Source of the DNA: a virus
Taxonomy: Duplodnaviria > Heunggongvirae > Uroviricota > Caudoviricetes
IMG/VR virus record: IMGVR_UViG_2737471829_000005
Length of the DNA: 44,545 bases
Reading direction: 5' to 3' (one strand)
Position numbers and translations under genes: made by a program. Positions 1,209-38,790 of this stretch are shown here, in pieces. Each line of letters starts with the position of its first letter. Position 1 is the first letter of the stretch. The notes below the pieces were generated by a model. The model was not told the origin of the DNA, did no database searches, and worked only from the letters and a program-made list of their open reading frames with translations.

Positions 1209-1233
1209 ATAAAAAAGGCCCCCGAAGGGGCCT
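1209..1233 (-). terminator. Intrinsic terminator; functional on the minus strand, hairpin also present on plus
   Basis: aggcccc-cgaa-ggggcct, 7-bp GC stem, preceded by A6 on plus, giving a U-run on minus. Confidence 0.55.
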
Positions 1234-1238
1234 AATCG

Positions 1239-1361
1239 CTACTTGCTGCTAATGTTTATCGTCACATTCAGAGCGTTATCAGTAATCTTCCAACCCTCCC
1301 CATGTGGCGTAAACAAAGCTCCAGTAACAACGATAAAAATACACATGTAGTATTTTTTCAT
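1239..1361 (-). CDS. Small hydrophobic peptide of about 40 aa (MKKYYMCIFIVVTGALFT...); possible membrane peptide or type I toxin candidate
   Basis: Internal ATG at 1361 with AAGGG RBS 7 nt upstream; hydrophobic N-terminus; terminator directly downstream. Confidence 0.25.
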   Translation of the reverse strand: MKKYYMCIFIVVTGALFTPHGEGWKITDNALNVTINISSK

Positions 1362-1425
1362 TGTGTGGCCCTTACAGGCCGTTTCACGGCATCCCCACCG
1401 ACGAAAATGACGCGAGAGCAAGCAC

Positions 1426-1445
1426 GCTGTTTGTGCCTGCGTGGT
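1426..1445 (+). repeat. Direct repeat copy 1 (gctgtttgtgcctgcgtggt)
   Basis: 19/20 identical to 1676-1695, 250 bp apart, in an ORF-poor region. Confidence 0.5.
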
Positions 1446-1633
1446 ACGGCAAGTGGATAATCCTTTCCTGAAAGTCAGTGCCCGGGTGCGAATCGGCGGA
1501 AAGGCCCCAAGCCATATTACACGTCATACCCTTCATAATGAAGGAATAAAAAACGCTTTTATTACATAAGATTACACGTAAATAAGTTAAAAACCTTCAT
1601 TTTGCATGAGCTAATGAGCTAAATTTTTTTATA

Positions 1634-2778: not shown

Positions 2779-2970
2779 ATGACAAACCTACCCCATGACT
2801 ATTACGTCAACCTCGTAAAGATCCTTCTCAAGAAAGCCTCATACGCCGATAAATTCCGCCTGGCTGAAATCATCGAGCGCGAAGCTATGCGCATCGCCAG
2901 CAACGATAACGCTGTTTCTGACGCAAAAATCTCCCTCGTAACCAAAGTAGTTATGGGAGGTGCAAAATGA
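2779..2970 (+). CDS. Small protein (63 aa) overlapping the antirepressor start; Icd-like position
   Basis: ATG at 2779 with GGAG 8 nt upstream; stop overlaps the antirepressor ATG (ATGA). Confidence 0.45.
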   Translation: MTNLPHDYYVNLVKILLKKASYADKFRLAEIIEREAMRIASNDNAVSDAKISLVTKVVMGGAK

Positions 2971-4112
2971 AAACGCTTCCGACCGTTAACACCCTACAGC
3001 CTATCCTGCATAACCAAATCCCTGTCATTACTACCGAGTTACTAGCACAGCTTTACGGCACTGAGCCGGTGCGTATTCGCCAGAATCATCATGAGAACAA
3101 AGCACGTTTCGTTGAAGGGAAACACTTTTTCAAAGTTGTTGGTAATGACCTTAAAGAATTGCGGGTAGCTTTAAACTACTCTCAAAATCCAGTTTCACCT
3201 AAAGTCCGCTCCCTCATCCTCTGGACAGAACGCGGGGCTGCACGTCACGCTAAAATGCTCGAAACCGATCAGGCGTGGGATGTATTCGAACGGCTGGAAG
3301 ACTGCTACTTCAACCAGAACGCGCAAACGGCCGCGACCGTAACCGTCTCACCAAACAATGCTCGTGAGGTTGTCGATACGCTCAACGCTAAACCAATGTA
3401 TTACATTAAGGTGTGCAACAACGAGCCACTCACAACCTCAGCCGATGTTGCCCAGGCATTCAGCACCACAAACAATTCCATCGTTATGGCCATCGATGCG
3501 TTACGCATTCCTCGCACAGCTGCGGCGCGTCACTTCTTTAAAGAGCAACGACCGCTGGAAGGAAGCGACCGCGAAATAACAATCTATCGCATGACAAAAG
3601 ACGGATTTACCTTGCTCATGGAGAGCATCGACGGTCCAAGCGTGAAAGATATCAAGCTGGCCTACATTGAAGCCTTTAACGCTATCAGCAGCGTGTTAAA
3701 AACACAGTACGAGCGTGATCTGGCTAAACGACTATACCAGGAAAAAACGATTATCCGCGCGGCAACAGAGCATAATCGGCTATTAACGGAACCGAACTAC
3801 AGGAAGGAACTAATCAAGGAGTTTGACAAGGCAACAGGGAAAACCAAAGCGGCGCTAAGTCTGCCAGCAATGACTCAGGAAAATGTGATATCAGCCTTAC
3901 TTCTTGATCTGCTCAGAAACGCCAGAGCACTTATCAGCTTTGACGAAAACCTGAATCCTCAGCTCAAGCTACTACCACCGACAGGCAAAGTAGTCGACCA
4001 AGCAGATCACAACAGCATACTCAGCGTACTGGATGCAAACCTGCCAGCCAGGACACTACAGGATCTGATAAAAACATGTGCTGATAAGCTGGCACAGAAA
4101 AGCAGACCATAA
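2967..4112 (+). CDS. Phage antirepressor (Ant-like; ORF6N/AntA-type N-terminal domain)
   Basis: 381-aa ORF; N-terminal region typical of antirepressor/Rha-type proteins; terminator directly downstream. Confidence 0.65.
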   Translation: MKTLPTVNTLQPILHNQIPVITTELLAQLYGTEPVRIRQNHHENKARFVEGKHFFKVVGNDLKELRVALNYSQNPVSPKVRSLILWTERGAARHAKMLETDQAWDVFERLEDCYFNQNAQTAATVTVSPNNAREVVDTLNAKPMYYIKVCNNEPLTTSADVAQAFSTTNNSIVMAIDALRIPRTAAARHFFKEQRPLEGSDREITIYRMTKDGFTLLMESIDGPSVKDIKLAYIEAFNAISSVLKTQYERDLAKRLYQEKTIIRAATEHNRLLTEPNYRKELIKEFDKATGKTKAALSLPAMTQENVISALLLDLLRNARALISFDENLNPQLKLLPPTGKVVDQADHNSILSVLDANLPARTLQDLIKTCADKLAQKSRP

Positions 4113-5801: not shown

Positions 5802-6101
5802 TCAGATGTTAAACGCTATTCGTTTTCCTGTGGGAAGCTCAACATCCAGGCTTAATTTGCCTCCCATAGCTTCAACGTAACGCTTTAATGTCGCCAGCTT
5901 TAAATCATTTCCGCGCTGCTCCAGCTTTGTTACTGCTGGCTGGCTTATACCCATCGCCTCAGCAACCTGTTTTTGTGATAACTGGAGTTCTTCACGCATC
6001 ATCTGCAAGCCGACCTCAAGAATCATCTCATCTGCCATTTCTTTAATTCGCGCCTGGCTTTCAGGTGAACGGCTGGCAATCACCTCATCTAATGTTCTCA
6101 T
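5802..6101 (-). CDS. HTH (XRE-type) antitoxin, HigA-like
   Basis: 99-aa ORF with HTH motif; overlaps the upstream toxin-like gene by 1 nt. Confidence 0.7.
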   Translation of the reverse strand: MRTLDEVIASRSPESQARIKEMADEMILEVGLQMMREELQLSQKQVAEAMGISQPAVTKLEQRGNDLKLATLKRYVEAMGGKLSLDVELPTGKRIAFNI

Positions 6102-6448
6102 TACTTGCTCTCCAGTGTGTTCAGATGTGCTGCAAACTCATCCTCAGCTATACGCACCAGTTTTTCATAAAACCGTTTATCGTTACTTTTGTCTCCTGCA
6201 CAAAGAACGATGGCCCGGCGAATCGGATCGAACGCATAAAAGGCTCTTATCGGACGGCCAGAAAACTGAACGCGAAGCTCTTTCATATTTTTGTACCGAG
6301 AACCTTTTACGGTATCGGCATATGGCCTGGGTAACTCAGGTCCGTAAACCTGTAGCTTTTTCAAATCAGCCAAAACCTTTTCCTGAAGAGCGTCTTCTTG
6401 CTCATTTAGCCAGTCGTCAAATCGCTGGCTAAAAAGTACCGTCCACAT
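6101..6448 (-). CDS. RelE/HigB-superfamily toxin (Gp49-like addiction-module killer)
   Basis: About 115 aa; toxin-first order with HTH antitoxin downstream; ATG at 6448 (the ORF track start at 6454 is TTG). Confidence 0.65.
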   Translation of the reverse strand: MWTVLFSQRFDDWLNEQEDALQEKVLADLKKLQVYGPELPRPYADTVKGSRYKNMKELRVQFSGRPIRAFYAFDPIRRAIVLCAGDKSNDKRFYEKLVRIAEDEFAAHLNTLESK

Positions 6449-6456
6449 GCTCAATC

Positions 6457-6692: not shown

Positions 6693-6968
6693 CTATTTTT
6701 GTGACTTTACTCCTGGCATATGGACTTCCCAGCGACGAATCCCCATAGCTGCGCAAAAATCAGCCACATAATTCAATCCCGCCCATTCGCGGATACCACC
6801 ACGGGCTTTTTCAATGAAAACGGCAATCCCTTTTTTATTGAGAGCAAAAAGCCGCCAGCTTTTTGTCACTTCGTCCTGGGTAGCCACAACACAAGTGAAA
6901 GCTCCCATGCGATACAGGTCCAAGAACTCTTTGCGTGTTTTGCGTACAAGTTCCATAACAAACCTCAT
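6693..6968 (-). CDS. Hypothetical protein; start ambiguous (6968 or 6956)
   Basis: ORF coupled to the upstream gene. Confidence 0.4.
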   Translation of the reverse strand: MRFVMELVRKTRKEFLDLYRMGAFTCVVATQDEVTKSWRLFALNKKGIAVFIEKARGGIREWAGLNYVADFCAAMGIRRWEVHMPGVKSQK

Positions 6969-6979
6969 ATTTGCATGTT

Positions 6980-7267
6980 TCAAACATCTGTTTTGTTATC
7001 AATGAAGATTAACCCTAACCCAGCGAAGTAACACAGCAGCGCCCAGGCTGCATACGGAATGCTGGATCTGGATGTGGACTCCTTTAACATCTGCCAATTG
7101 CGAACATTGCGACTATCTTTTAAGCCAAGTTTTTTGGCCAACTGCGAGCCGCTCATTCCGGTCAGGCCAATGACTGCCCGAACTTCTCCACATGTAGGAG
7201 ACTCCCATTCATCCGCTTTTTTTAAACAAGCCGGATTCAACATTTTTAAAACAGTATCTTTATCCAT
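6980..7267 (-). CDS. Small HTH-like protein with C-terminal hydrophobic segment (candidate membrane-anchored DNA-binding protein)
   Basis: HTH-like LTGMSGSQLAKKLGL and C-terminal IPYAAWALLCYFAGLGLIF; ATG at 7267 with GGAGA RBS. Confidence 0.4.
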   Translation of the reverse strand: MDKDTVLKMLNPACLKKADEWESPTCGEVRAVIGLTGMSGSQLAKKLGLKDSRNVRNWQMLKESTSRSSIPYAAWALLCYFAGLGLIFIDNKTDV

Positions 7268-7513
7268 AACCATCTCCATTTATTATATCTACGATGGTAG
7301 GAAATCTTTTCCTATGTGGCAATAGAAATTTACTACATTGCGTATAAGACAACTTTTCTATGTCTAATAGGAAATGATGTTTCTTACGTTTTATCGCGTT
7401 CTGATGGCTACTGTGTGCGTATTTATCGACGTTTATTGATAAGGCTCCCCCTTCCTCCTGCAAAGCCCGGCCGTAGGCCTTATTTCGTCCTTATATAAAT
7501 TGATTTTGTATAG

Positions 7514-7625
7514 TTCGAAACGTGCCGTTTCGAAAAGGATGATCAGGCTACTCCATGCCTCCGGCAAGTGCCGGAGGAGGTATATTTGAGCGTAGCGACT
7601 CGAACCGGCGCGAGCTTTAGCTCGC
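7514..7625. other. Cluster of three palindromic hairpins downstream of repA
   Basis: ttcgaaacg-tgc-cgtttcgaa (7514-7534), cctccggc-aagt-gccggagg (7558-7577), gcgagct-tt-agctcgc (7610-7625). Confidence 0.4.
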
Positions 7626-7629
7626 TGCA

Positions 7630-7909
7630 AGGGCGAACATATTCACAGGCAAAGCCTGCGTAAGTTAAATAAAGAAAGTTTTAATAAAAGAAAGTGATTT
7701 TGCATTTATTTGTTTAGTGCATCTATTATAAAAAACCATTTGCATATACATATCAAAACTGTGGATAACTTGATTAGTTGATACCTGTAAAGGCGATATT
7801 TTTGCTGAGTTCAGGTTTAGAGAAAATTAATTTAGCTTGTTTTTTGAACAGCTATTTTTTTGCGACGTAGATAATCCTCCGGTAAAACCGGATTCATCAT
7901 TCAGGTGAG
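7630..7909. other. Candidate vegetative origin (oriV) of the IncFII-type replicon
   Basis: AT-rich ORF-free tract just downstream of repA with a perfect DnaA box and repeated ttgcat elements. Confidence 0.45.
7760..7768 (-). promoter_or_regulatory. DnaA box, perfect consensus TTATCCACA on the minus strand
   Basis: tgtggataa on plus. Confidence 0.5.
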
Positions 7910-8887
7910 TTAATGTTGGAGTGATTTCCAGGTCTTTCTTAGCCTGTTATAACGCTGCTCAACGAGGGATCGTAAATATGCAAGGTCAGCACCAGGATAC
8001 ATGCCATCAGCAAATTCCTGGCTAACCTCTCTAGTGATTTGATGACGAAGTTCGGCCTCTCCCTTTTCCTGAACAAGACGCGCAGCTCTCTCCGCTGCTT
8101 TCTGTTTTGCCTTTATCTCTCTGGCCGTCTTCCTCTGACGCCATACATTCTCCATCTGCTCCTGAATAACAATACGCTTATAATCAGCCTCCGTTATCGC
8201 TTTTTTAAGCCGTTCGCTATTCTTCGCATTGAAGTAATTAAGTTTCTGGCTAACCGCACGTCTCCATGCTTGTTCAGTAATACCAACGGTTTCCAGCAGT
8301 TGATCACGAATCTCTATTTTCGCTGGCCAATACTGTTTATTCACCCGATCCCAGCGACGTTCATAATCAATAAAACCTAACGCTTTCAGTTGCGACAACG
8401 CCCTTGTACAGCGCGTTATAGACTTGTTCCCAGCTTCGGATACGGTAGACAGGCCGCAAAAATCAGCCAACGCCTCAGCACTAGCCAGAACCCGCTTAGA
8501 AATGATGTTTACATGGTGCAAAATCGCAGCGATCACAGCATTAATCGCCCGACGACGATGCTCGTTTATCCGGCGCTTCCGCTCTGACGGTTGATTAACG
8601 TAGAACGCAACCTCACACGTAAGATCACGCCCATTAATGCGCTGTAAAGCATCAGATAACACCAGCGGCAGCTTGTGCGTATGGTGCTTTGGAGGCTGGA
8701 ACTCCGGCGACAAATTACAAACGTAAGCTGAACGTAGAGACGGCATTGGTCTATCCATATGTTCGCTCTTGCGTCCACGGAAAACCAACGTATAATGGGA
8801 GTTGTCGAGGCGCCCATGGTTAATTGTTGGTTTTCCGTGGATGTCGCAAGAAGCCCGCAGATTTATCTGCGGGCTTTTTGTTTCCAT
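7910..8887 (-). CDS. repA: Replication initiator RepA, IncFII (RepA1) family; true start may be internal near 8758
   Basis: Central block CGLSTVSEAGNKSITRCTRALSQLKALGFIDY matches the conserved core of IncFII RepA1 as recalled; basic coiled C-terminus. Confidence 0.75.
   Translation of the reverse strand: METKSPQINLRASCDIHGKPTINHGRLDNSHYTLVFRGRKSEHMDRPMPSLRSAYVCNLSPEFQPPKHHTHKLPLVLSDALQRINGRDLTCEVAFYVNQPSERKRRINEHRRRAINAVIAAILHHVNIISKRVLASAEALADFCGLSTVSEAGNKSITRCTRALSQLKALGFIDYERRWDRVNKQYWPAKIEIRDQLLETVGITEQAWRRAVSQKLNYFNAKNSERLKKAITEADYKRIVIQEQMENVWRQRKTAREIKAKQKAAERAARLVQEKGEAELRHQITREVSQEFADGMYPGADLAYLRSLVEQRYNRLRKTWKSLQH
8769..8796 (+). promoter_or_regulatory. Near-consensus sigma70 promoter antisense to the repA 5' region
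   Basis: TTGCGT, 16-bp spacer, TATAAT. Confidence 0.55.
8803..8880 (+). ncRNA. Candidate CopA-like antisense RNA of about 78 nt
   Basis: Promoter 8769-8796 and strong terminator 8853-8883 bracket a short plus-strand transcript antisense to the repA 5' end. Confidence 0.5.
8853..8883 (+). terminator. Intrinsic terminator of the candidate antisense RNA
   Basis: gcccgcag-atttat-ctgcgggc followed by TTTTTGTTT. Confidence 0.65.
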
Positions 8888-8922
8888 ATCTGGTCACTTT
8901 CCAACCAGACACCCACAATCAT

Positions 8923-8939
8923 AACCACGTTACGTGGTT
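8923..8939. promoter_or_regulatory. Perfect 8-bp inverted repeat aaccacgt-t-acgtggtt upstream of repA; operator candidate
   Basis: Palindrome read directly; two GATC sites nearby at 8982-9000. Confidence 0.35.
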
Positions 8940-9068
8940 TTAAGAGAACTCTACCACAACACTTTCGGTCATGCACGAAGTCTCTCACTGATCGAACGAT
9001 AATCCACCAGTAAAAGGATCTAAATTGGATCTCGTTTTGCGAGCATCATACTACTGGCCTAACTCCAG

Positions 9069-9623
9069 TCAATGATTCCCAGCCGGAAACCTGCGGTAAA
9101 GCGTGGATAAGGTAACATCGAAGATAATCGCTATCCGCTTACGTGAAACACCATTCGCAATAAGCCTTCCGATCTGTTCCCATTGCTCTGGTGCCAGCTT
9201 TGAGCGACGTCCTCCTATCCTGCCGTTAGCCCTTGCCACCGCCAATCCTGCACGCGTTCTTTCAATCATATTTTCCCGCTCCATCTCTGCGACTGCACTC
9301 AGCATCGTGTAGGCAAAGCGGCCAATTGAAGTGCTAATTTTTATCCCTTCCGTAATCGAAATAAACTCAATGTTGTTTGATAAAAAATGGTTAAGTAAAT
9401 CAACAAGATGAATCAGAGAACGCCCCATTCGATCCAGCTTCCAGACAATAACCGTATCGCCCGGCCGTAGCACCTTAAGTAGCTTATCAAGCCCTGGCCG
9501 TTTTGATTTAGCACCGGATATTTTATCTTCAAAAATCCGGTCACATCCTGAACTCCTGAGCGCCTCCAGTTGTAATTCCAAATTCTGGTCAAAAGTTGAC
9601 ACCCTCGCATAACCATATTGCAT
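9069..9623 (-). CDS. Serine DNA invertase of the Cin/Gin/Hin/Pin family
   Basis: 184-aa ORF starting MQYGYARVSTFDQ with catalytic serine context and C-terminal HTH; lies next to an inverted-repeat-flanked tail-fibre segment. Confidence 0.9.
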   Translation of the reverse strand: MQYGYARVSTFDQNLELQLEALRSSGCDRIFEDKISGAKSKRPGLDKLLKVLRPGDTVIVWKLDRMGRSLIHLVDLLNHFLSNNIEFISITEGIKISTSIGRFAYTMLSAVAEMERENMIERTRAGLAVARANGRIGGRRSKLAPEQWEQIGRLIANGVSRKRIAIIFDVTLSTLYRRFPAGNH

Positions 9624-9696
9624 ACTTTCTAAACCGCGATTGTTGCTAAAAGCGGGAAAAAATATCGTTCAGACGACACAGAGGCAATTCGCAAAA

Positions 9697-9769
9697 ACCT
9701 CGGTTTACAGGAAACGGTAAATCAGGCTTCTGGTGCGTTGCAGAAAAACCAGAATGGCGCAGATATTCC
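9697..9769. repeat. Left inverted repeat of the invertible segment; contains the crossover site
   Basis: 73 bp, reverse complement identical to 12679-12751. Confidence 0.85.
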
Positions 9770-10658
9770 GGGAAAAGATACCTTCACCAAAAATATTGGG
9801 GCCTGCCGCGCATATAGCGCATGGCTGAATATTGGTGGCGATAGTCAGGTCTGGACAACCGCGCAATTTATTTCGTGGCTGGAGAGTCAGGGAGCATTTA
9901 ACCATCCTTACTGGATGTGCAAAGGCTCATGGGCTTATGCAAATAATAAGGTCATTACAGATACAGGTTGCGGAAATATTTGTCTTGCAGGTGCTGTGGT
10001 GGAAGTTATTGGCACTCGCGGCGCAATGACCATACGCGTTACCACGCCGAGCACGTCCAGCGGTGGCGGAATTACTAACGCTCAATTCACTTATATTAAT
10101 CATGGTGATGCTTATGCTCCTGGCTGGCGACGAGACTACAACACGAAAAATCAACAACCTGCATTTGCTTTAGGGCAAACAGGAAGCACTGTCGGAAATG
10201 ATAAAGCTGTTGGCTGGAACTGGAATAGCGGGGTCTATAACGCAAACATTGGTGGCGCATCGACATTAATCCTCCACTTCAATATGAATGCGGGGAGCTG
10301 CCCTGCTGTACAGTTCCGCGTGAATTACAGGAACGGCGGCATTTTTTATCGTTCAGCGCGTGATGGTTATGGATTTGAGGCTGACTGGTCAGAGTTTTAC
10401 ACCACGACCCGCAAACCCTCTGCGGGAGATGTTGGTGCATACACGCAGGCAGAATGTAACTCAAGGTTTATTACAGGTATTCGCCTTGGCGGTCTGTCAT
10501 CTGTTCAGACATGGAATGGCCCCGGCTGGTCTGACAGGTCAGGTTATGTCGTTACGGGTTCAGTTAACGGAAACCGTGATGAATTAATTGATACAACACA
10601 GGCAAGGCCAATTCAGTATTGCATTAATGGGACGTGGTATAACGCGGGGAGTATTTAA
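9738..10658 (+). CDS. Alternative tail-fibre C-terminal variable segment (Sv'); silent in this orientation
   Basis: Shares the junction peptide ASGALQKNQNGADIP and a similar C-terminus (PIQ.YINGTWYN) with the expressed fibre; no own promoter or start. Confidence 0.75.
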   Translation: MQKNQNGADIPGKDTFTKNIGACRAYSAWLNIGGDSQVWTTAQFISWLESQGAFNHPYWMCKGSWAYANNKVITDTGCGNICLAGAVVEVIGTRGAMTIRVTTPSTSSGGGITNAQFTYINHGDAYAPGWRRDYNTKNQQPAFALGQTGSTVGNDKAVGWNWNSGVYNANIGGASTLILHFNMNAGSCPAVQFRVNYRNGGIFYRSARDGYGFEADWSEFYTTTRKPSAGDVGAYTQAECNSRFITGIRLGGLSSVQTWNGPGWSDRSGYVVTGSVNGNRDELIDTTQARPIQYCINGTWYNAGSI

Positions 10659-10660
10659 CG

Positions 10661-11194
10661 ATGATGCACTTAAAAAACATTACTGCTGGCAACCCTAAAA
10701 CAAAAGAGCAATACCAGCTAACAAAGCAATTTAACATCAAATGGCTTTATTCAGATGATGGAAAAAACTGGTATGAGGAACAAAAGAATTTCCAGCCAGA
10801 CACTTTGAAAATGGTCTATGACCATAACGGCGTTATTATTTGTATTGAAAAGGATGTTTCAGCAATTAATCCGGAAGGCGCAAGCGTCGTTGAATTACCT
10901 GATATTACAGCAAATCGCCGGGCTGATATTTCGGGGAAATGGTTGTTCAAAGATGGCGTAGTGATAAAGCGAACTTATACCGAGGAAGAGCAGAGGCAAC
11001 AAGCGGAAAATGAAAAGCAAAGCCTGCTACAGCTCGTCAGGGATAAAACCCAGCTATGGGACTCACAGCTACGGCTGGGTATCATTTCCAACGAGAATAA
11101 ACAAAAATTAACCGAGTGGATGCTCTATGCGCAGAAGGTCGAATCCACAGACACCTCCAGCCTGCCAGTAACGTTTCCAGAACAACCAGAATGA
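10661..11194 (+). CDS. Tail-fibre assembly chaperone (U'), alternative copy
   Basis: 177 aa; paralogue of 11223-11750. Confidence 0.8.
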   Translation: MMHLKNITAGNPKTKEQYQLTKQFNIKWLYSDDGKNWYEEQKNFQPDTLKMVYDHNGVIICIEKDVSAINPEGASVVELPDITANRRADISGKWLFKDGVVIKRTYTEEEQRQQAENEKQSLLQLVRDKTQLWDSQLRLGIISNENKQKLTEWMLYAQKVESTDTSSLPVTFPEQPE

Positions 11195-11197
11195 AAC

Positions 11198-11226
11198 AAG
11201 GCCCGCTATCGGGCCTTAATTTTTAT
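11198..11226. terminator. Bidirectional terminator between the convergent chaperone genes
   Basis: aaggcccg-ctat-cgggcctt followed by a T-rich run. Confidence 0.55.
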
Positions 11227-11750
11227 TCAGGCTTTTGTGGCCATTCAGGATTTGCCGTATCCACACGGCTGACCAGAACGCTGTAGCGTTCCCATGCTTC
11301 CAGTCGTGTGCGTTCCTCGTCTGTTGCCATATTCAGCCTGACAGCGCGTTCCAGCGGCTGGATGACTGATTCAGCTTCGGAAATCAACGCGGCCTTTTGT
11401 GATTCGGCCTGTTGTTGCTGTTCGTCAGCCGTATAAATCCGCTTAATCACAGCACCATCCTTAAACATCCATTTACCTGAGTCATCAGCACGTCGGTTGG
11501 CGGTAATATCAGGAACCTCGACAACGCTAAAACCTTCAGGGTTAAGCGTGGAGGCATCTTTGGTGATGGCGGCAATAATATTATTTTCGTCGTATACAAT
11601 CTTTATGGTGTCGTCCTGAAAGTTATTTACTTCCTCATACCAGTTTTTACCGTCTTCTGTATATAACCAGATAACATCAAAATTCTTTGTTAGCTGATAT
11701 TGCTCTTTTGTTTTTGGATTTCCTGACTTAATATTTTTTAAATGCTGCAT
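11223..11750 (-). CDS. Tail-fibre assembly chaperone (U), expressed copy
   Basis: 175 aa; paralogue of U'; directly downstream of the tail-fibre gene. Confidence 0.8.
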
Positions 11751-11753
11751 AAT

Positions 11754-14108
11754 TTACACCTGTGCGACGTTATACCATGTGCCATTGATGTATTTTTGTA
11801 TTGGTCTGAAGATGGCTTCATCATCGCCATCTACTTCACCAATGATTCTTAATCCGGTAATTGCGTGTCCGGCTTTTTCATAACGACCACCACGCGCCAT
11901 CAATTGAACAACACGCGTACCCAGGCGAACATCTTTCACATAACGGGAATCAAAGTTACCGTAATCCGAGGGGTTAACACGCCCTGTAATATTTATGGTT
12001 TTATTACTTTGAATGCTGCCGGAGACAAAGCGCATAACATGGACGTTATTAGCATAAACGTCCAGATTACCGTCGCCATTTTGTTTAAAGCCCGTGTCAT
12101 TATCACCCAAAACAATCGAGTTACCGCCAAGAGCACTGGATGTTCCGATGCCCAGTGCACCATTCAATTGACCTCCAGATAATGACAACGCCCCAACATC
12201 AGCAGCAGTCGGTTTAATGTGCGAACTGTAAATTACATATACAGTTCCATCTGTCAGGCCTTTTGGTTTATTCGCTGTATAAGTTGGTGATGTATGAATC
12301 GTTACGCTGGCGTTACTGGTATAATCCCACTGAATATTAACACCTGTGGCGTAATTACCTATTTCAACATAAACATCATAGGTATCACCGGATGTATTCA
12401 CCCATGCAAAATTAGTAAATCCAACCGATGTCCGTCGCCATAACGCACCAGTAAGACCTTTTGGATTTCCATTTCCCGCACGAAGAACAAGTTCAGATAT
12501 ACCAGCCTGCATAGGGGAGTTAACATTATATCCAGCACCACCAATCAGGCTTATGTAAACCACGGAACTGGCCTGGGGCATGGTTACAGTTGCCAGCCTG
12601 AACCATCCTGTACCACCACTAAAAGACATGGTTGTTGAATTTGTTGCTCCAATATTGCGCAGGAATAATCTTTTATCAGGAATATCTGCGCCATTCTGGT
12701 TTTTCTGCAACGCACCAGAAGCCTGATTTACCGTTTCCTGTAAACCGAGGTATTCGATAACGGCGGCAACGGTCGATTTCGCAAGAATATCCCGCCCGAC
12801 TTTTGTCAGAGTTGCCAGGCTGGCGACATCATTCCCCGTAAAATACGGAAACCTGTCTGCCGCAGTAGCAAGCCCGGCCAGCGCCGTCAGGGTGGCATCT
12901 TTCGGTTGCTTACCCGCAAGCGCGTTAGTCATGGTGGTCGCAAAATTCGGGTCGTTGCCCAACGCCGCAGCCAGCTCGTTCAGCGTATTTAGTGCGTCAG
13001 GCGACGAGTCCACGAGGGCAGCGATCGCAGCCATAACATAAGCCGTGCTTGCGATCTGAGTATTGTTAGTACCTTTTGGCGCAGTTGGTGTTGTTGGTGT
13101 TCCGGTCAGCGCAGGACTGTTTAAGGGCGCTTTCTTGTTCGTTTCATCCATTACCGCCTTAACAGCTTTTGGTGTCGCAGCCAGCGTTTCAGACGTGCTG
13201 TTAGTGGCACTACTGAGCTGAGTTATTCCCCTTACAGTCAGTGAAGCTACAGGCACATTTGTTATCTGCTCCCACGAATGCGTGTGATTGGACGGAGCCT
13301 TTCCGGCCGCAAGATCATACGCTGCCTTAACAGCCTTTGGTGTTGCTGCTAGCGTTTCAGACGTGCTGTTGGTGGCACTACTGAGCTGAACAATCCCTTT
13401 TCGCGCTGTGGTAGCGTCCTGTGCGGTGTATTTAGCGTTAGCAAGGTCATATGCTGCCTTAACAGCCTTAGGCGTCGCAGCAAGCGTTTCAGACGCGCTA
13501 TTGGTGGCGCTGCTAAGTTGAACAAAGCCTTTTGAGGTTAAAGTTGCATCAGGATGATTACGTGATTGCTCATGTTTCACAATGGCTTGCTTAAGCCGCT
13601 TTGCTGAAACAGCAAGGGAATCATCTGTACCTGCCTCAATTTCTTGTTCATTAGCAAATCTTGCCACCCCAACAACAGTTTCGGTCGCGGGAGGATTAAT
13701 AAACTCAATATCACCAAATGTAATATTTTTAGTATCAAGAGTCTTAATTGCTATATCACTTGATATTAAAGCGATAGTAGATGATGCTTTATTTATTATT
13801 GCTTGTTCTTGTGAGTATACAGCAAACAACGCCCCCTTATTCGTATACAATCCTATTGTATGGACAACATACTCATCTTTACTATCATCCTTCGCTGTTA
13901 CATGAATTGTATCAGGGGAAACAACTTTGCCACCTATTGTGGTAAGTCGTTTTATTTCGTTTGTTATATTTGTTTGTGAGGTTGACGTGACATAATATCT
14001 ACTACCTAAACCAACAGAAACAATCTCAACTTTATTTGTTCCTGTTTTGTTGGCATTAACCAGCTCCTGACGCCCGGCGTCAGTCATCGTAAATAATAAT
14101 TTACTCAC
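11754..14108 (-). CDS. Tail fibre protein (S); constant N-terminal part outside, variable C-terminal part inside the invertible segment
   Basis: 784 aa; repeat-rich; crossover repeat lies inside the ORF at 12679-12751. Confidence 0.85.
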   Translation of the reverse strand: MSKLLFTMTDAGRQELVNANKTGTNKVEIVSVGLGSRYYVTSTSQTNITNEIKRLTTIGGKVVSPDTIHVTAKDDSKDEYVVHTIGLYTNKGALFAVYSQEQAIINKASSTIALISSDIAIKTLDTKNITFGDIEFINPPATETVVGVARFANEQEIEAGTDDSLAVSAKRLKQAIVKHEQSRNHPDATLTSKGFVQLSSATNSASETLAATPKAVKAAYDLANAKYTAQDATTARKGIVQLSSATNSTSETLAATPKAVKAAYDLAAGKAPSNHTHSWEQITNVPVASLTVRGITQLSSATNSTSETLAATPKAVKAVMDETNKKAPLNSPALTGTPTTPTAPKGTNNTQIASTAYVMAAIAALVDSSPDALNTLNELAAALGNDPNFATTMTNALAGKQPKDATLTALAGLATAADRFPYFTGNDVASLATLTKVGRDILAKSTVAAVIEYLGLQETVNQASGALQKNQNGADIPDKRLFLRNIGATNSTTMSFSGGTGWFRLATVTMPQASSVVYISLIGGAGYNVNSPMQAGISELVLRAGNGNPKGLTGALWRRTSVGFTNFAWVNTSGDTYDVYVEIGNYATGVNIQWDYTSNASVTIHTSPTYTANKPKGLTDGTVYVIYSSHIKPTAADVGALSLSGGQLNGALGIGTSSALGGNSIVLGDNDTGFKQNGDGNLDVYANNVHVMRFVSGSIQSNKTINITGRVNPSDYGNFDSRYVKDVRLGTRVVQLMARGGRYEKAGHAITGLRIIGEVDGDDEAIFRPIQKYINGTWYNVAQV
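12679..12751. repeat. Right inverted repeat of the invertible segment, inside the tail-fibre ORF
   Basis: Reverse complement identical to 9697-9769. Confidence 0.85.
13156..13527 (-). repeat. Three tandem coding repeats (about 70 nt conserved cores) inside the tail-fibre gene
   Basis: Encode the repeated peptide SSATNS.SETLAATPKAVKA. Confidence 0.7.
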
Positions 14109-38714: not shown

Positions 38715-38790
38715 TGGTGGCCCCTACCGGATTTGAACCGATGACCGTGCGATTATGAGTCGCCTGCTCTAACCACTAAGCTAAGGGGCC
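38715..38790 (-). tRNA. tRNA with CAU anticodon (Ile2-like or Met elongator; not distinguishable by eye)
   Basis: Reverse complement is GGCCCCTTAGCTTAGTGGTTAGAGCAGGCGACTCATAATCGCACGGTCATCGGTTCAAATCCGGTAGGGGCCACCA: 7-bp acceptor stem, D-arm, CTCATAA anticodon loop, GGTTCAAATCC T-arm, encoded CCA. Confidence 0.85.

Follow-up and report, generated by a model that had tools for sequence, protein, structure and literature searches.

A plasmid-type replicon with a predicted antisense control RNA in a myovirus-type phage-plasmid

In plasmids of the IncB, IncL-M and IncI groups, a small antisense RNA blocks the translation of a leader peptide and also a pseudoknot on which the translation of RepA depends (PMC8125031, PMC8053102). 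Variation in the antisense RNA separates the IncL, IncM1 and IncM2 plasmid lines (PMC8125031). The subject of this analysis is a replicon located in the DNA stretch IMGVR_UViG_2737471829_000005 (hereafter the window, that is, the entire stretch of 44,545 nucleotides, to which all coordinates refer). The segment 7540-9072 is likely to be a plasmid-maintenance replicon that consists of the initiator RepA, an origin downstream of its gene and an antisense RNA that would control the copy number by causing the repA mRNA leader to refold. The unit, rearranged and uncatalogued, is related to well-known plasmid replicons and does not constitute a system of a new kind.

Phage-plasmids spread genes, resistance genes among them, by infection as well as by plasmid inheritance and, to our knowledge, the setting of copy number and incompatibility in these groups is mostly unstudied outside phages P1 and N15. 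The replication of phage P1 is controlled by iteron handcuffing and not by an antisense RNA. The window represents a ~48-kb myovirus-type phage-plasmid. It carries virion genes (terminase, portal, major head protein, tail sheath and tape measure) and an anti-repressor, along with the replication gene and the partition gene ParA (28-696), and records of the element exist among phages as well as among extrachromosomal circles. Three phages isolated on Y. pestis match the replicon stretch 7300-9060, namely Yersinia phage vB_YpM_39 (circular record of 49 kb), at 99.9% identity, and two sister phages of the latter, at 98.4%. About 60 plasmid records from E. coli, Salmonella and Klebsiella (47-52 kb; counting records that cover at least 80% of the replicon query) show 98-99.8% identity to the replicon, and all of these are typed as non-mobilizable. 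Among 5426 complete E. coli genomes, 71 (1.3%) contain the element, at 82 places, all 82 on plasmids and none in a chromosome. Because structural genes and ParA are present and the element is never chromosomal in E. coli, the window qualifies as a phage-plasmid, and the replicon explains how the phage persists as a free plasmid in this host. Plasmid-style maintenance of a phage, with a RepA replicon and a partition module, is what the first-pass annotation of the window had proposed, and both parts of that proposal hold. In the public annotation, the replicon appears only as ‘repA’ or ‘hypothetical protein’, and, among the papers covered by a literature search, none refers to these phages or plasmids by name or accession, and a broader query yielded no account of this replicon. 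Compared with window positions 7300-7365, the vB_YpM_39 record (L001, OR545053) has an excess of ~270 bases towards the far end of the replicon region, and its match comes in two pieces (2030 bases in OR545053 versus 1761 in the window).

The replication initiator gene repA occupies positions 7910-8758 on the minus strand and encodes 282 amino acids from the ATG at 8758 or 278 amino acids from an alternative ATG at 8746. The longer open reading frame (ORF) 7910-8887 matches the Pfam family PF02387 (IncFII_repA) over residues 52-318 with an E-value of 1e-43 and a score of 150 bits (cut-off 22.9), with profile positions 2-272 of 275 covered, and the NCBIfam model NF040977 (RepA_IncFII_LM) over its entire length (positions 1-266 of 266) with 231.5 bits (cut-off 70). 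In contrast, the strict IncFII equivalog model TIGR03474 (incFII_RepA) yields 78.2 bits, compared with a cut-off of 446.9, and the repA genes of classical IncFII plasmids are only ~31% identical to the window RepA over 45% of the protein (tblastn against PLSDB). Because PF02387 and NF040977 are both matched above their cut-offs, RepA is assigned, by sequence, to the IncFII/IncL-M RepA superfamily and not to IncFII sensu stricto. The homology to IncFII initiators that had been proposed is thus borne out by the profile search at the level of the family, whereas membership in the IncFII RepA1 group proper is not; the notion of a plasmid-type, antisense-controlled replicon that maintains the phage was right in substance, with a family label that was too narrow.

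Closer homologs are 81-85% and ~60% identical to the window RepA. Related RepA proteins are 274-284 amino acids long, and their start corresponds to the second ATG of the window gene (8746). Both PGAP and the phage record place the start at 8887, which yields a protein of 325 amino acids. That ATG is missing in the relatives, and indels of +2 or +5 break the reading frame of the 43-codon extension (8759-8887) in 4 of 10 near-identical variants, so that the extension appears to be non-coding and the annotated start is probably a mis-annotation; it would, moreover, place the entire antisense RNA gene and the leader hairpins inside the coding sequence. A Shine-Dalgarno (SD) sequence, AAGAG (8766-8770), is located seven nucleotides 5' of the ATG at 8758, and the predicted start of repA is then either 8758 or 8746.

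Relatives of the replicon were gathered by exact-protein look-up, by a RepA scan of viral contigs and by searching contigs of viral and metagenome origin for GCCTCGACA-N-CTCC-N-ATTATA, a conserved block. Three of the metagenome matches (L043, L049 and L050) are GC-rich soil sequences that lack the surrounding element and were discarded as chance matches. After their removal and that of duplicates, 14 unique sequences belong to the subclade of the window (subclade 1) and eight to a second subclade, with RepA ~60% identical to that of the window. Where the flanks are readable, subclade 2 replicons adjoin phage tail genes or sit on viral contigs. A scan of one genome per species, with the RepA alignment and with a conserved 21-nt motif, produced no match.

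Opposite the 5' leader of repA, on the plus strand, lies a candidate promoter (8769-8796) that consists of the -35 hexamer TTGCGT (8769-8774), a 16-nt spacer and the -10 hexamer TATAAT (8791-8796). It is the sole occurrence of TTGNNN-N16-18-TATAAT on either strand of the window, against 2.3 expected window-wide. The RNA predicted to start here (plus strand, 8801-8884, ~83 nt) comprises a 5' tail, GUUGUCGA, followed by stem-loop I, the terminator stem-loop II and a U tail; with a putative 5' end at about 8801/8804 and a 3' end at 8881-8884, its length would be 78-84 nt, in agreement with the ~78-nt transcript bracketed by promoter and terminator that had been predicted initially. The predicted fold of this RNA has a minimum free energy of -41.1 kcal/mol (z = -6.85), and for the 116-nt stretch 8769-8884, z reaches -10.7. 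The 8-nt tail is unpaired in this fold. Stem-loop I spans 8809-8845, with an apical loop at about 8820-8834. Stem-loop II (8846-8884) is an intrinsic terminator, with a core stem 8853-8861/8866-8874 and a U tract at 8875-8884, and folds into a 16-bp stem at 8846-8881 followed by the U run, so that the strong terminator originally placed at 8853-8883 is confirmed. A simple promoter and terminator scan of the window listed neither of these signals, the promoter probably because of its weak -35 hexamer and the terminator probably because the extension of the stem absorbs the T run. No replication-control RNA was detected by an Rfam search of the window at the gathering scores or of the region 7300-9100 at E-values up to 10; the best matches in that region, Thr_leader (32 bits) and CsrC, reflect only the combination of a hairpin and a terminator. 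The locus combines its own promoter, its own terminator and a structured transcript opposite the target, that is, the sequence-level attributes of a cis-encoded antisense RNA gene.

Comparison with the relatives supports the existence of this gene well, although the RNA itself is a prediction. The succession of tail, stem-loop I and terminator recurs in all 22 unique sequences, and in subclade 2, stem-loop I is built from unrelated sequence. In both subclades, TATAAT and TTGxxx are kept 16-18 nt apart while the spacer, which is one arm of the mRNA helix described below, is replaced; in L008, a non-phage relative with a RepA 63% identical to that of the window, TTGAAA-16-TATAAT is found at the same position. 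A covariance model of subclade 1 retrieves all subclade 2 copies at full length and on the expected strand (~34 bits, E ~5e-7) and, in the window, produces a single full-length match, 8801-8883, with 111 bits. The G.U pairs of stem-loop I turn into A.C mismatches on the mRNA strand, and the region of this stem-loop is more stable on the antisense strand in 22 of the 22 sequences, by 6.5 kcal/mol on average. In stem-loop II, a compensatory change from A-U to G-C is seen in 3 of the 14 subclade 1 sequences, and more pairs are changed in subclade 2. Covariation is counted here within each subclade because MAFFT could not align stem-loop I across the subclades, and the model-derived alignment of both mixed in partial matches on the opposite strand.

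The conservation of the RNA is interrupted at one site. Across 15 unique, near-identical variants of the replicon, a segment of the stem-loop I apical loop (8819-8831, plus strand) is the most variable 20-column window of the 1.77-kb unit, with a diversity of 0.22 compared with the mean of 0.016. The variation includes indels of GTT-type units, whereas the remainder of the RNA is almost invariant. This segment is unpaired both in the antisense RNA and in its target, and an equivalent variable apical loop is present in subclade 2.

On the mRNA strand, the leader of repA is predicted to fold into a hairpin closed by a long-range helix, in which the 5' arm (8826-8850, inside the antisense target) pairs with a distal arm (8768-8789), that is, 8850-8826 with 8789-8768, over 16 + 6 bp; the last three nucleotides of the distal arm overlap the SD. 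The two arms change together in L004-L007, and in subclade 2, the helix is rebuilt from an entirely different sequence. This covariation belongs to the mRNA because the antisense RNA lacks the complement of the distal arm. At the tip of the target hairpin, a 9-nt loop, CCUCGACAA (8802-8810, minus strand), is complementary to the 5' tail of the antisense RNA; its probability of being unpaired in the mRNA ensemble is at least 0.9, the antisense tail is equally unpaired, and the loop sequence is identical in both subclades. When pairing of the antisense target was forbidden in silico and the leader refolded, the distal arm of the window leader folded onto the repA start, and the probability of being unpaired fell from 0.86 to 0.02 for the ATG at 8746 and, modestly, from 0.42 to 0.26 for the ATG at 8758. 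The corresponding value for the SD-adjacent ATG of L004-L006 dropped from 0.40-0.85 to no more than 0.01, and of the four subclade 2 loci, three showed closure of the SD of their first gene.

From the sequence features, conservation, covariation, strand bias and plasmid state, all of which are observed, we infer the production of the RNA, its ends and each step of the following scheme. The antisense RNA, ~83 nt long and fully complementary to the repA mRNA leader, would be made constitutively. RepA would be produced from the minus strand and act on the origin directly 3' of its own gene. As long as the antisense RNA is missing, the long-range helix would form and leave the start codon open. 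When the RNA is present, its 5' tail and the apical loop of stem-loop I would contact the two unpaired segments at the tip of the leader hairpin, full pairing would then take up the 5' arm, and the freed distal arm would fold onto the translation start through the pairing CGUUGGUU/GACCAAUG, blocking RepA synthesis. The best reading of the models, then, is that the antisense RNA prevents an activating long-range helix, so that a default inhibitory fold would block RepA translation; that the helix acts as a translation activator is suggested by the predicted folds. The antisense RNA probably sets the copy number, and a role of the hypervariable loop in incompatibility is plausible.

The origin on which RepA is predicted to act follows the repA stop codon in a defined order that, on the minus strand, consists of a hairpin, an A-rich run, a DnaA box, three ATGCA repeats, an AT-rich tract and three further hairpins. 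The first hairpin (7879-7891, minus strand; CCGG-N5-CCGG followed by AGG), in the CIS position directly after the stop codon, is conserved in all relatives. The perfect DnaA box TTATCCACA (7760-7768, minus strand), the only one in the 44.5-kb window, is located ~145 nt after the stop codon, a distance that ranges from 135 to 146 nt in the window, L004-L007 and L012 (RepA 60-85% identical). The occurrence of a single perfect DnaA box is in itself within chance expectation, as 48 of 100 shuffled windows contain at least one. The three ATGCA(A/C) repeats (7700-7745, minus strand; TTGCAT at 7700 and 7740, GTGCAT at 7717) are candidate RepA binding sites and are positionally conserved in all relatives, including L057, a mobilizable KPC plasmid with a RepA 37% identical to that of the window. 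The AT-rich tract (7664-7760) has a GC content of 20.6%, compared with 44.2% for the whole window, and is the probable unwinding region. The three GC-rich hairpins with conserved spacers (7558-7658) have single-stranded DNA fold z-scores of -2.2 and -2.4, and hairpins 1 and 2 show compensatory changes across seven relatives; they possibly represent a single-strand priming signal.

The stretch 7601-7769, which includes the 7601-7658 part of the hairpin block, is the only similarity at the DNA level between the window and subclade 2. The repeats, the AT-rich tract and the hairpins are also found in L057, a Klebsiella plasmid, so that this layout is conserved across relatives with RepA 37-85% identical. 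The classical IncFII plasmid pDM0133 shows the same order of elements, with the DnaA box 179 nt after the stop codon, and the only stretch that can be locally aligned is a weak, gapped match over the CIS hairpin and the adjoining A-rich run. The AT-rich tract, the DnaA box and the ttgcat repeats from which an origin had originally been proposed are all in place, and layout and conservation support the origin well, its activity being predicted. Beyond the origin hairpins, a perfect palindrome, TTCGAAACG-N3-CGTTTCGAA (7515-7535), and a GGCC-loop-GGCC hairpin (7465-7482) are conserved in L004-L007; each may be a protein-binding site or a terminator.

The closest described control systems are those of IncB (pMU720), IncL-M (pMU604) and IncI plasmids. 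The model that covers the window RepA, NF040977, spans IncFII and IncL-M. The predicted antisense RNA of the window resembles theirs in its length of ~80 nt and in having its -10 TATAAT inside the leader, and an element just 5' of the repA ribosome-binding site is complementary to the antisense target, so that the RNA and this element would compete for one site, as in those plasmids (PMC8125031, PMC8053102). Of the design captured by the Rfam family PK-repBA, the window retains the AUUAUA (-10) block, the distal element and, at the corresponding position, an A run with a GCCCGC hairpin after it. The predicted control logic would be the same antisense/pseudoknot competition as in IncB, IncI and IncL-M plasmids, exerted through a plain 22-bp helix.

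Unlike these plasmids, the window lacks a conserved leader peptide, has the plain 16 + 6 bp helix in place of the short pseudoknot, and its equivalent of the RNAI recognition hairpin is cut down to nothing more than a terminator, the loop of which has 4 nt; the new 5' stem-loop and the 5' tail appear to have taken over recognition. No conserved short leader ORF coupled to repA was found in subclade 1. Two candidates were considered and rejected, one starting at the loop ATG at 8817, which is not preceded by an SD and differs in frame and stop between relatives, and the other starting at the ATG next to the SD, which is in frame with repA in the window, lies in different frames and gives different lengths in L004-L006, and is missing in subclade 2.

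Neither PK-repBA (RF01089) nor PK-repZ (RF01087) matches the window at E-values up to 10, and neither reaches its gathering score in L004-L006, L009, L012, L021 or L022. PK-repBA does exceed its gathering score of 45 in two relatives, L008 (49.3 bits), the contig of which carries a conjugation-type trbC gene, and L057 (56.7 bits). L008 also has a sub-threshold CopA-like match (34.3 bits; gathering score 60) on the opposite strand, a 15-codon leader ORF, read from its sequence, that ends with GUGA at the repA start, and an UUGGCGG loop complementary to CCGCCA just before the repA SD; the corresponding UUGGCG/CGCCAA loop motif is missing in the window. Because closer non-phage relatives carry PK-repBA, the control element of the window looks like a derived variant of the IncB/IncL-M type. 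More tentatively, and perhaps not as the favored outcome, this can be extended to an uncatalogued RNA family, with only phage tail genes as neighbours or viral contigs as carriers wherever the context is readable, in which control of the IncB/L-M type would have been rebuilt in four ways: the leader peptide was lost, a 22-bp helix with the antisense -10 in its apical loop replaced the pseudoknot, the old recognition hairpin became the terminator, and recognition passed to the 5' tail and tip loop together with a hypervariable new stem-loop.

At the level of the entire element, phage P1 (IncY RepA, iterons) and SSU5/pHCM2 are comparable in that a tailed phage persists as a low-copy circular plasmid with its own initiator and ParA. 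The differences from P1 are that the window replicon belongs to the antisense-controlled IncFII/L-M superfamily and that the genome is ~48 kb in size, with a P2/Mu-like tail module.

Several observations weigh against a copy-control circuit of the kind proposed here. The -35 hexamer matches the TTGACA consensus at three of six positions and is weak, so that the description of the promoter as near-consensus in the first-pass annotation, correct as to its presence and position, was overstated. Folded alone, stem-loop I is weak (z = -1.8), and the covariation within each subclade is thin (1-2 double changes) among closely related sequences. Slippage of GTT units could make the variability of the loop mutational rather than selected. 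In the free mRNA fold, the first three nucleotides of the SD are paired at the base of the helix, so that this state may not be fully translatable; when the target is blocked, the accessibility of the SD changes little in L012 (0.51 to 0.36) and that of the start codon barely changes in subclade 2. Finally, the transcript is known here from sequence alone, and its existence, 5' end and effect are predictions.

The last point, together with the weak -35, would also fit the view that there is no separate RNA gene at all, and that the hairpins either act only in cis in the leader, as a translational operator, or serve the invertase gene upstream as its bidirectional terminator, with TATAAT conserved for reasons of the mRNA strand. 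All the helices can also be folded on that strand, and the long helix is specific to it. We nevertheless consider this view improbable: the strand bias of stem-loop I extends to all 22 sequences, a T run is found behind the terminator only on the plus strand, the -35 and -10 elements are held 16-18 nt apart although subclade 2 has a different spacer, repA is accompanied by the element also in L005 and L008, which have no upstream invertase, and in the related PK-repBA systems, the identical AUUAUA block forms the -10 of the antisense RNA (PMC8125031). A somewhat better case, although still an unlikely one, can be made for an antisense RNA that is real and works in another mode, either through RNase III cleavage of the ~80-bp duplex and decay of the repA mRNA, or through premature termination at the leader hairpin. 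The full complementarity over ~83 nt creates an RNase III substrate, the GC-rich leader hairpin 8853-8874 precedes UUCUU on the mRNA strand, and the refolding on which the proposed mechanism depends is modest at the ATG at 8758 and absent at the subclade 2 start codon. Cleavage of such a duplex by RNase III is established for CopA/CopT. On the other side, the mRNA-strand tail after the hairpin is U-poor (CUUCUUGCG) and makes a weak terminator, and the maintenance of the long-range helix with a wholly different sequence in subclade 2 argues for a role of its own, like that of the PK-repBA pseudoknot.

Far less probable than either of these is that the replicon is of the classical IncFII type (R1/R100), equipped with CopA, CopB and Tap, as the initial label of an IncFII-type unit would suggest. 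The Pfam family bears the IncFII name, the succession of repA, a CIS-type hairpin, a DnaA box and an AT-rich origin is shared with R1 and R100, and the antisense RNA resembles CopA in its length and in having two stem-loops. Yet, in addition to the low TIGR03474 score and the limited identity of RepA, CopA (RF00042) has no match at E-values up to 10 in 7300-9100, whereas the same tool assigns 99.4 bits to pDM0133, a true IncFII plasmid in which tap and an upstream regulatory repA gene are annotated; the ‘CopA-like’ RNA is therefore not a member of the Rfam CopA family. The 310 bp between the invertase stop codon (9069) and the repA ATG (8758) contain no conserved ORF that could be copB or tap. 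The recognition loop also differs in position, being located on the terminator stem-loop in CopA and, apparently, on the 5' stem-loop in the window. These tests refute classical IncFII membership at the level of the family.

Refolding of the repA leader by a PK-repBA-derived antisense RNA, the reading preferred here, leaves the general principles of replication control unchanged; what is new is the rearrangement of the control RNA and the hypervariable loop that it carries, which together would make a compact example of a rewired antisense/pseudoknot control circuit and a new RNA family for annotation pipelines. As judged from its frequency in complete E. coli genomes, many of which are clinical, the group is common; it also plates on Y. 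pestis. The origin, the antisense RNA and the variable loop provide a handle on copy control and incompatibility typing for this group. If the proposed role of the loop is correct, it could be an incompatibility switch through which closely related phage-plasmids escape mutual copy control and coexist or superinfect.

Upstream of repA, a candidate promoter, denoted P1 (9045-9072, minus strand; TTGACT-16-TATGAT, 10 of 12 matches in a promoter scan), overlaps the stop codon of the invertase gene and occurs at a conserved position in relatives. Two GATC sites come after it (9028-9031 and 9017-9020); as both subclades and L008 retain a GATC cluster at this place, transcription of repA may be under Dam/SeqA-linked control. 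A second repA promoter is possible at 8948-8976 on the minus strand, where GTGCAT-17-(TGg)TAGAGT can be read from the sequence and GTGCAY-17-TAGAGT is conserved in both subclades. Its -35 element resembles the ATGCA repeats of the origin, so that autoregulation by RepA through this promoter is conceivable.

In two subclade 2 loci, an additional ORF of 158 amino acids is located between the control RNA and repA (L009, 2528-3004; L010, 1236-1712), and in L011, an ORF at the same place is cut by the contig end. The extra ORFs of L009-L011 show a partial match to the IncFII_repA Pfam family, and their stop codon overlaps with the start of repA in the sequence ATGA. In L012, an uncalled and shorter ORF of ~60 codons (at about 2835-3010) has a similarly close junction to repA, the reading of its stop codon being provisional. 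The antisense RNA of subclade 2 would then control repA via a larger coupled gene instead of a leader peptide.

The surroundings of the replicon include other elements of phage-plasmid biology. An isrK-like RNA (68 bits) and a C4 antisense RNA (70.8 bits), both above the Rfam gathering scores, lie within 2543-2729 on the plus strand, directly upstream of an anti-repressor ORF (2967-4112, plus strand; PHROG anti-repressor families). This set is an immI immunity module of the P1/P7 type, a feature that the window shares with those phages, and constitutes a second antisense-RNA system of the phage. A full-length ryfA-family RNA (1211-1509, minus strand; 134.6 bits, gathering score 80) is located between the partition genes and a helix-turn-helix (HTH) gene. 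The origin side is flanked, within 5802-6454 and 6693-7279 (both on the minus strand), by a HigB/Gp49-type toxin paired with an HTH antitoxin and by two small ORFs, one of which is weakly similar to ‘mobile mystery protein A’; in relatives, this toxin-antitoxin slot is occupied by HicAB. On the other side, the Cin/Hin-type invertase gene (9069-9623) adjoins oppositely oriented pairs of tail-fibre and tail-fibre-assembly genes (9738-11194, plus strand; 11223-14108, minus strand), and the region 9069-14108 is a Mu/P1-like invertible host-range segment that abuts the replicon. Some relatives have no invertase gene at the position adjoining the replicon. The window also contains one tRNA gene (38718-38790, minus strand; 65.8 bits), which is located among ORFs of the early region.

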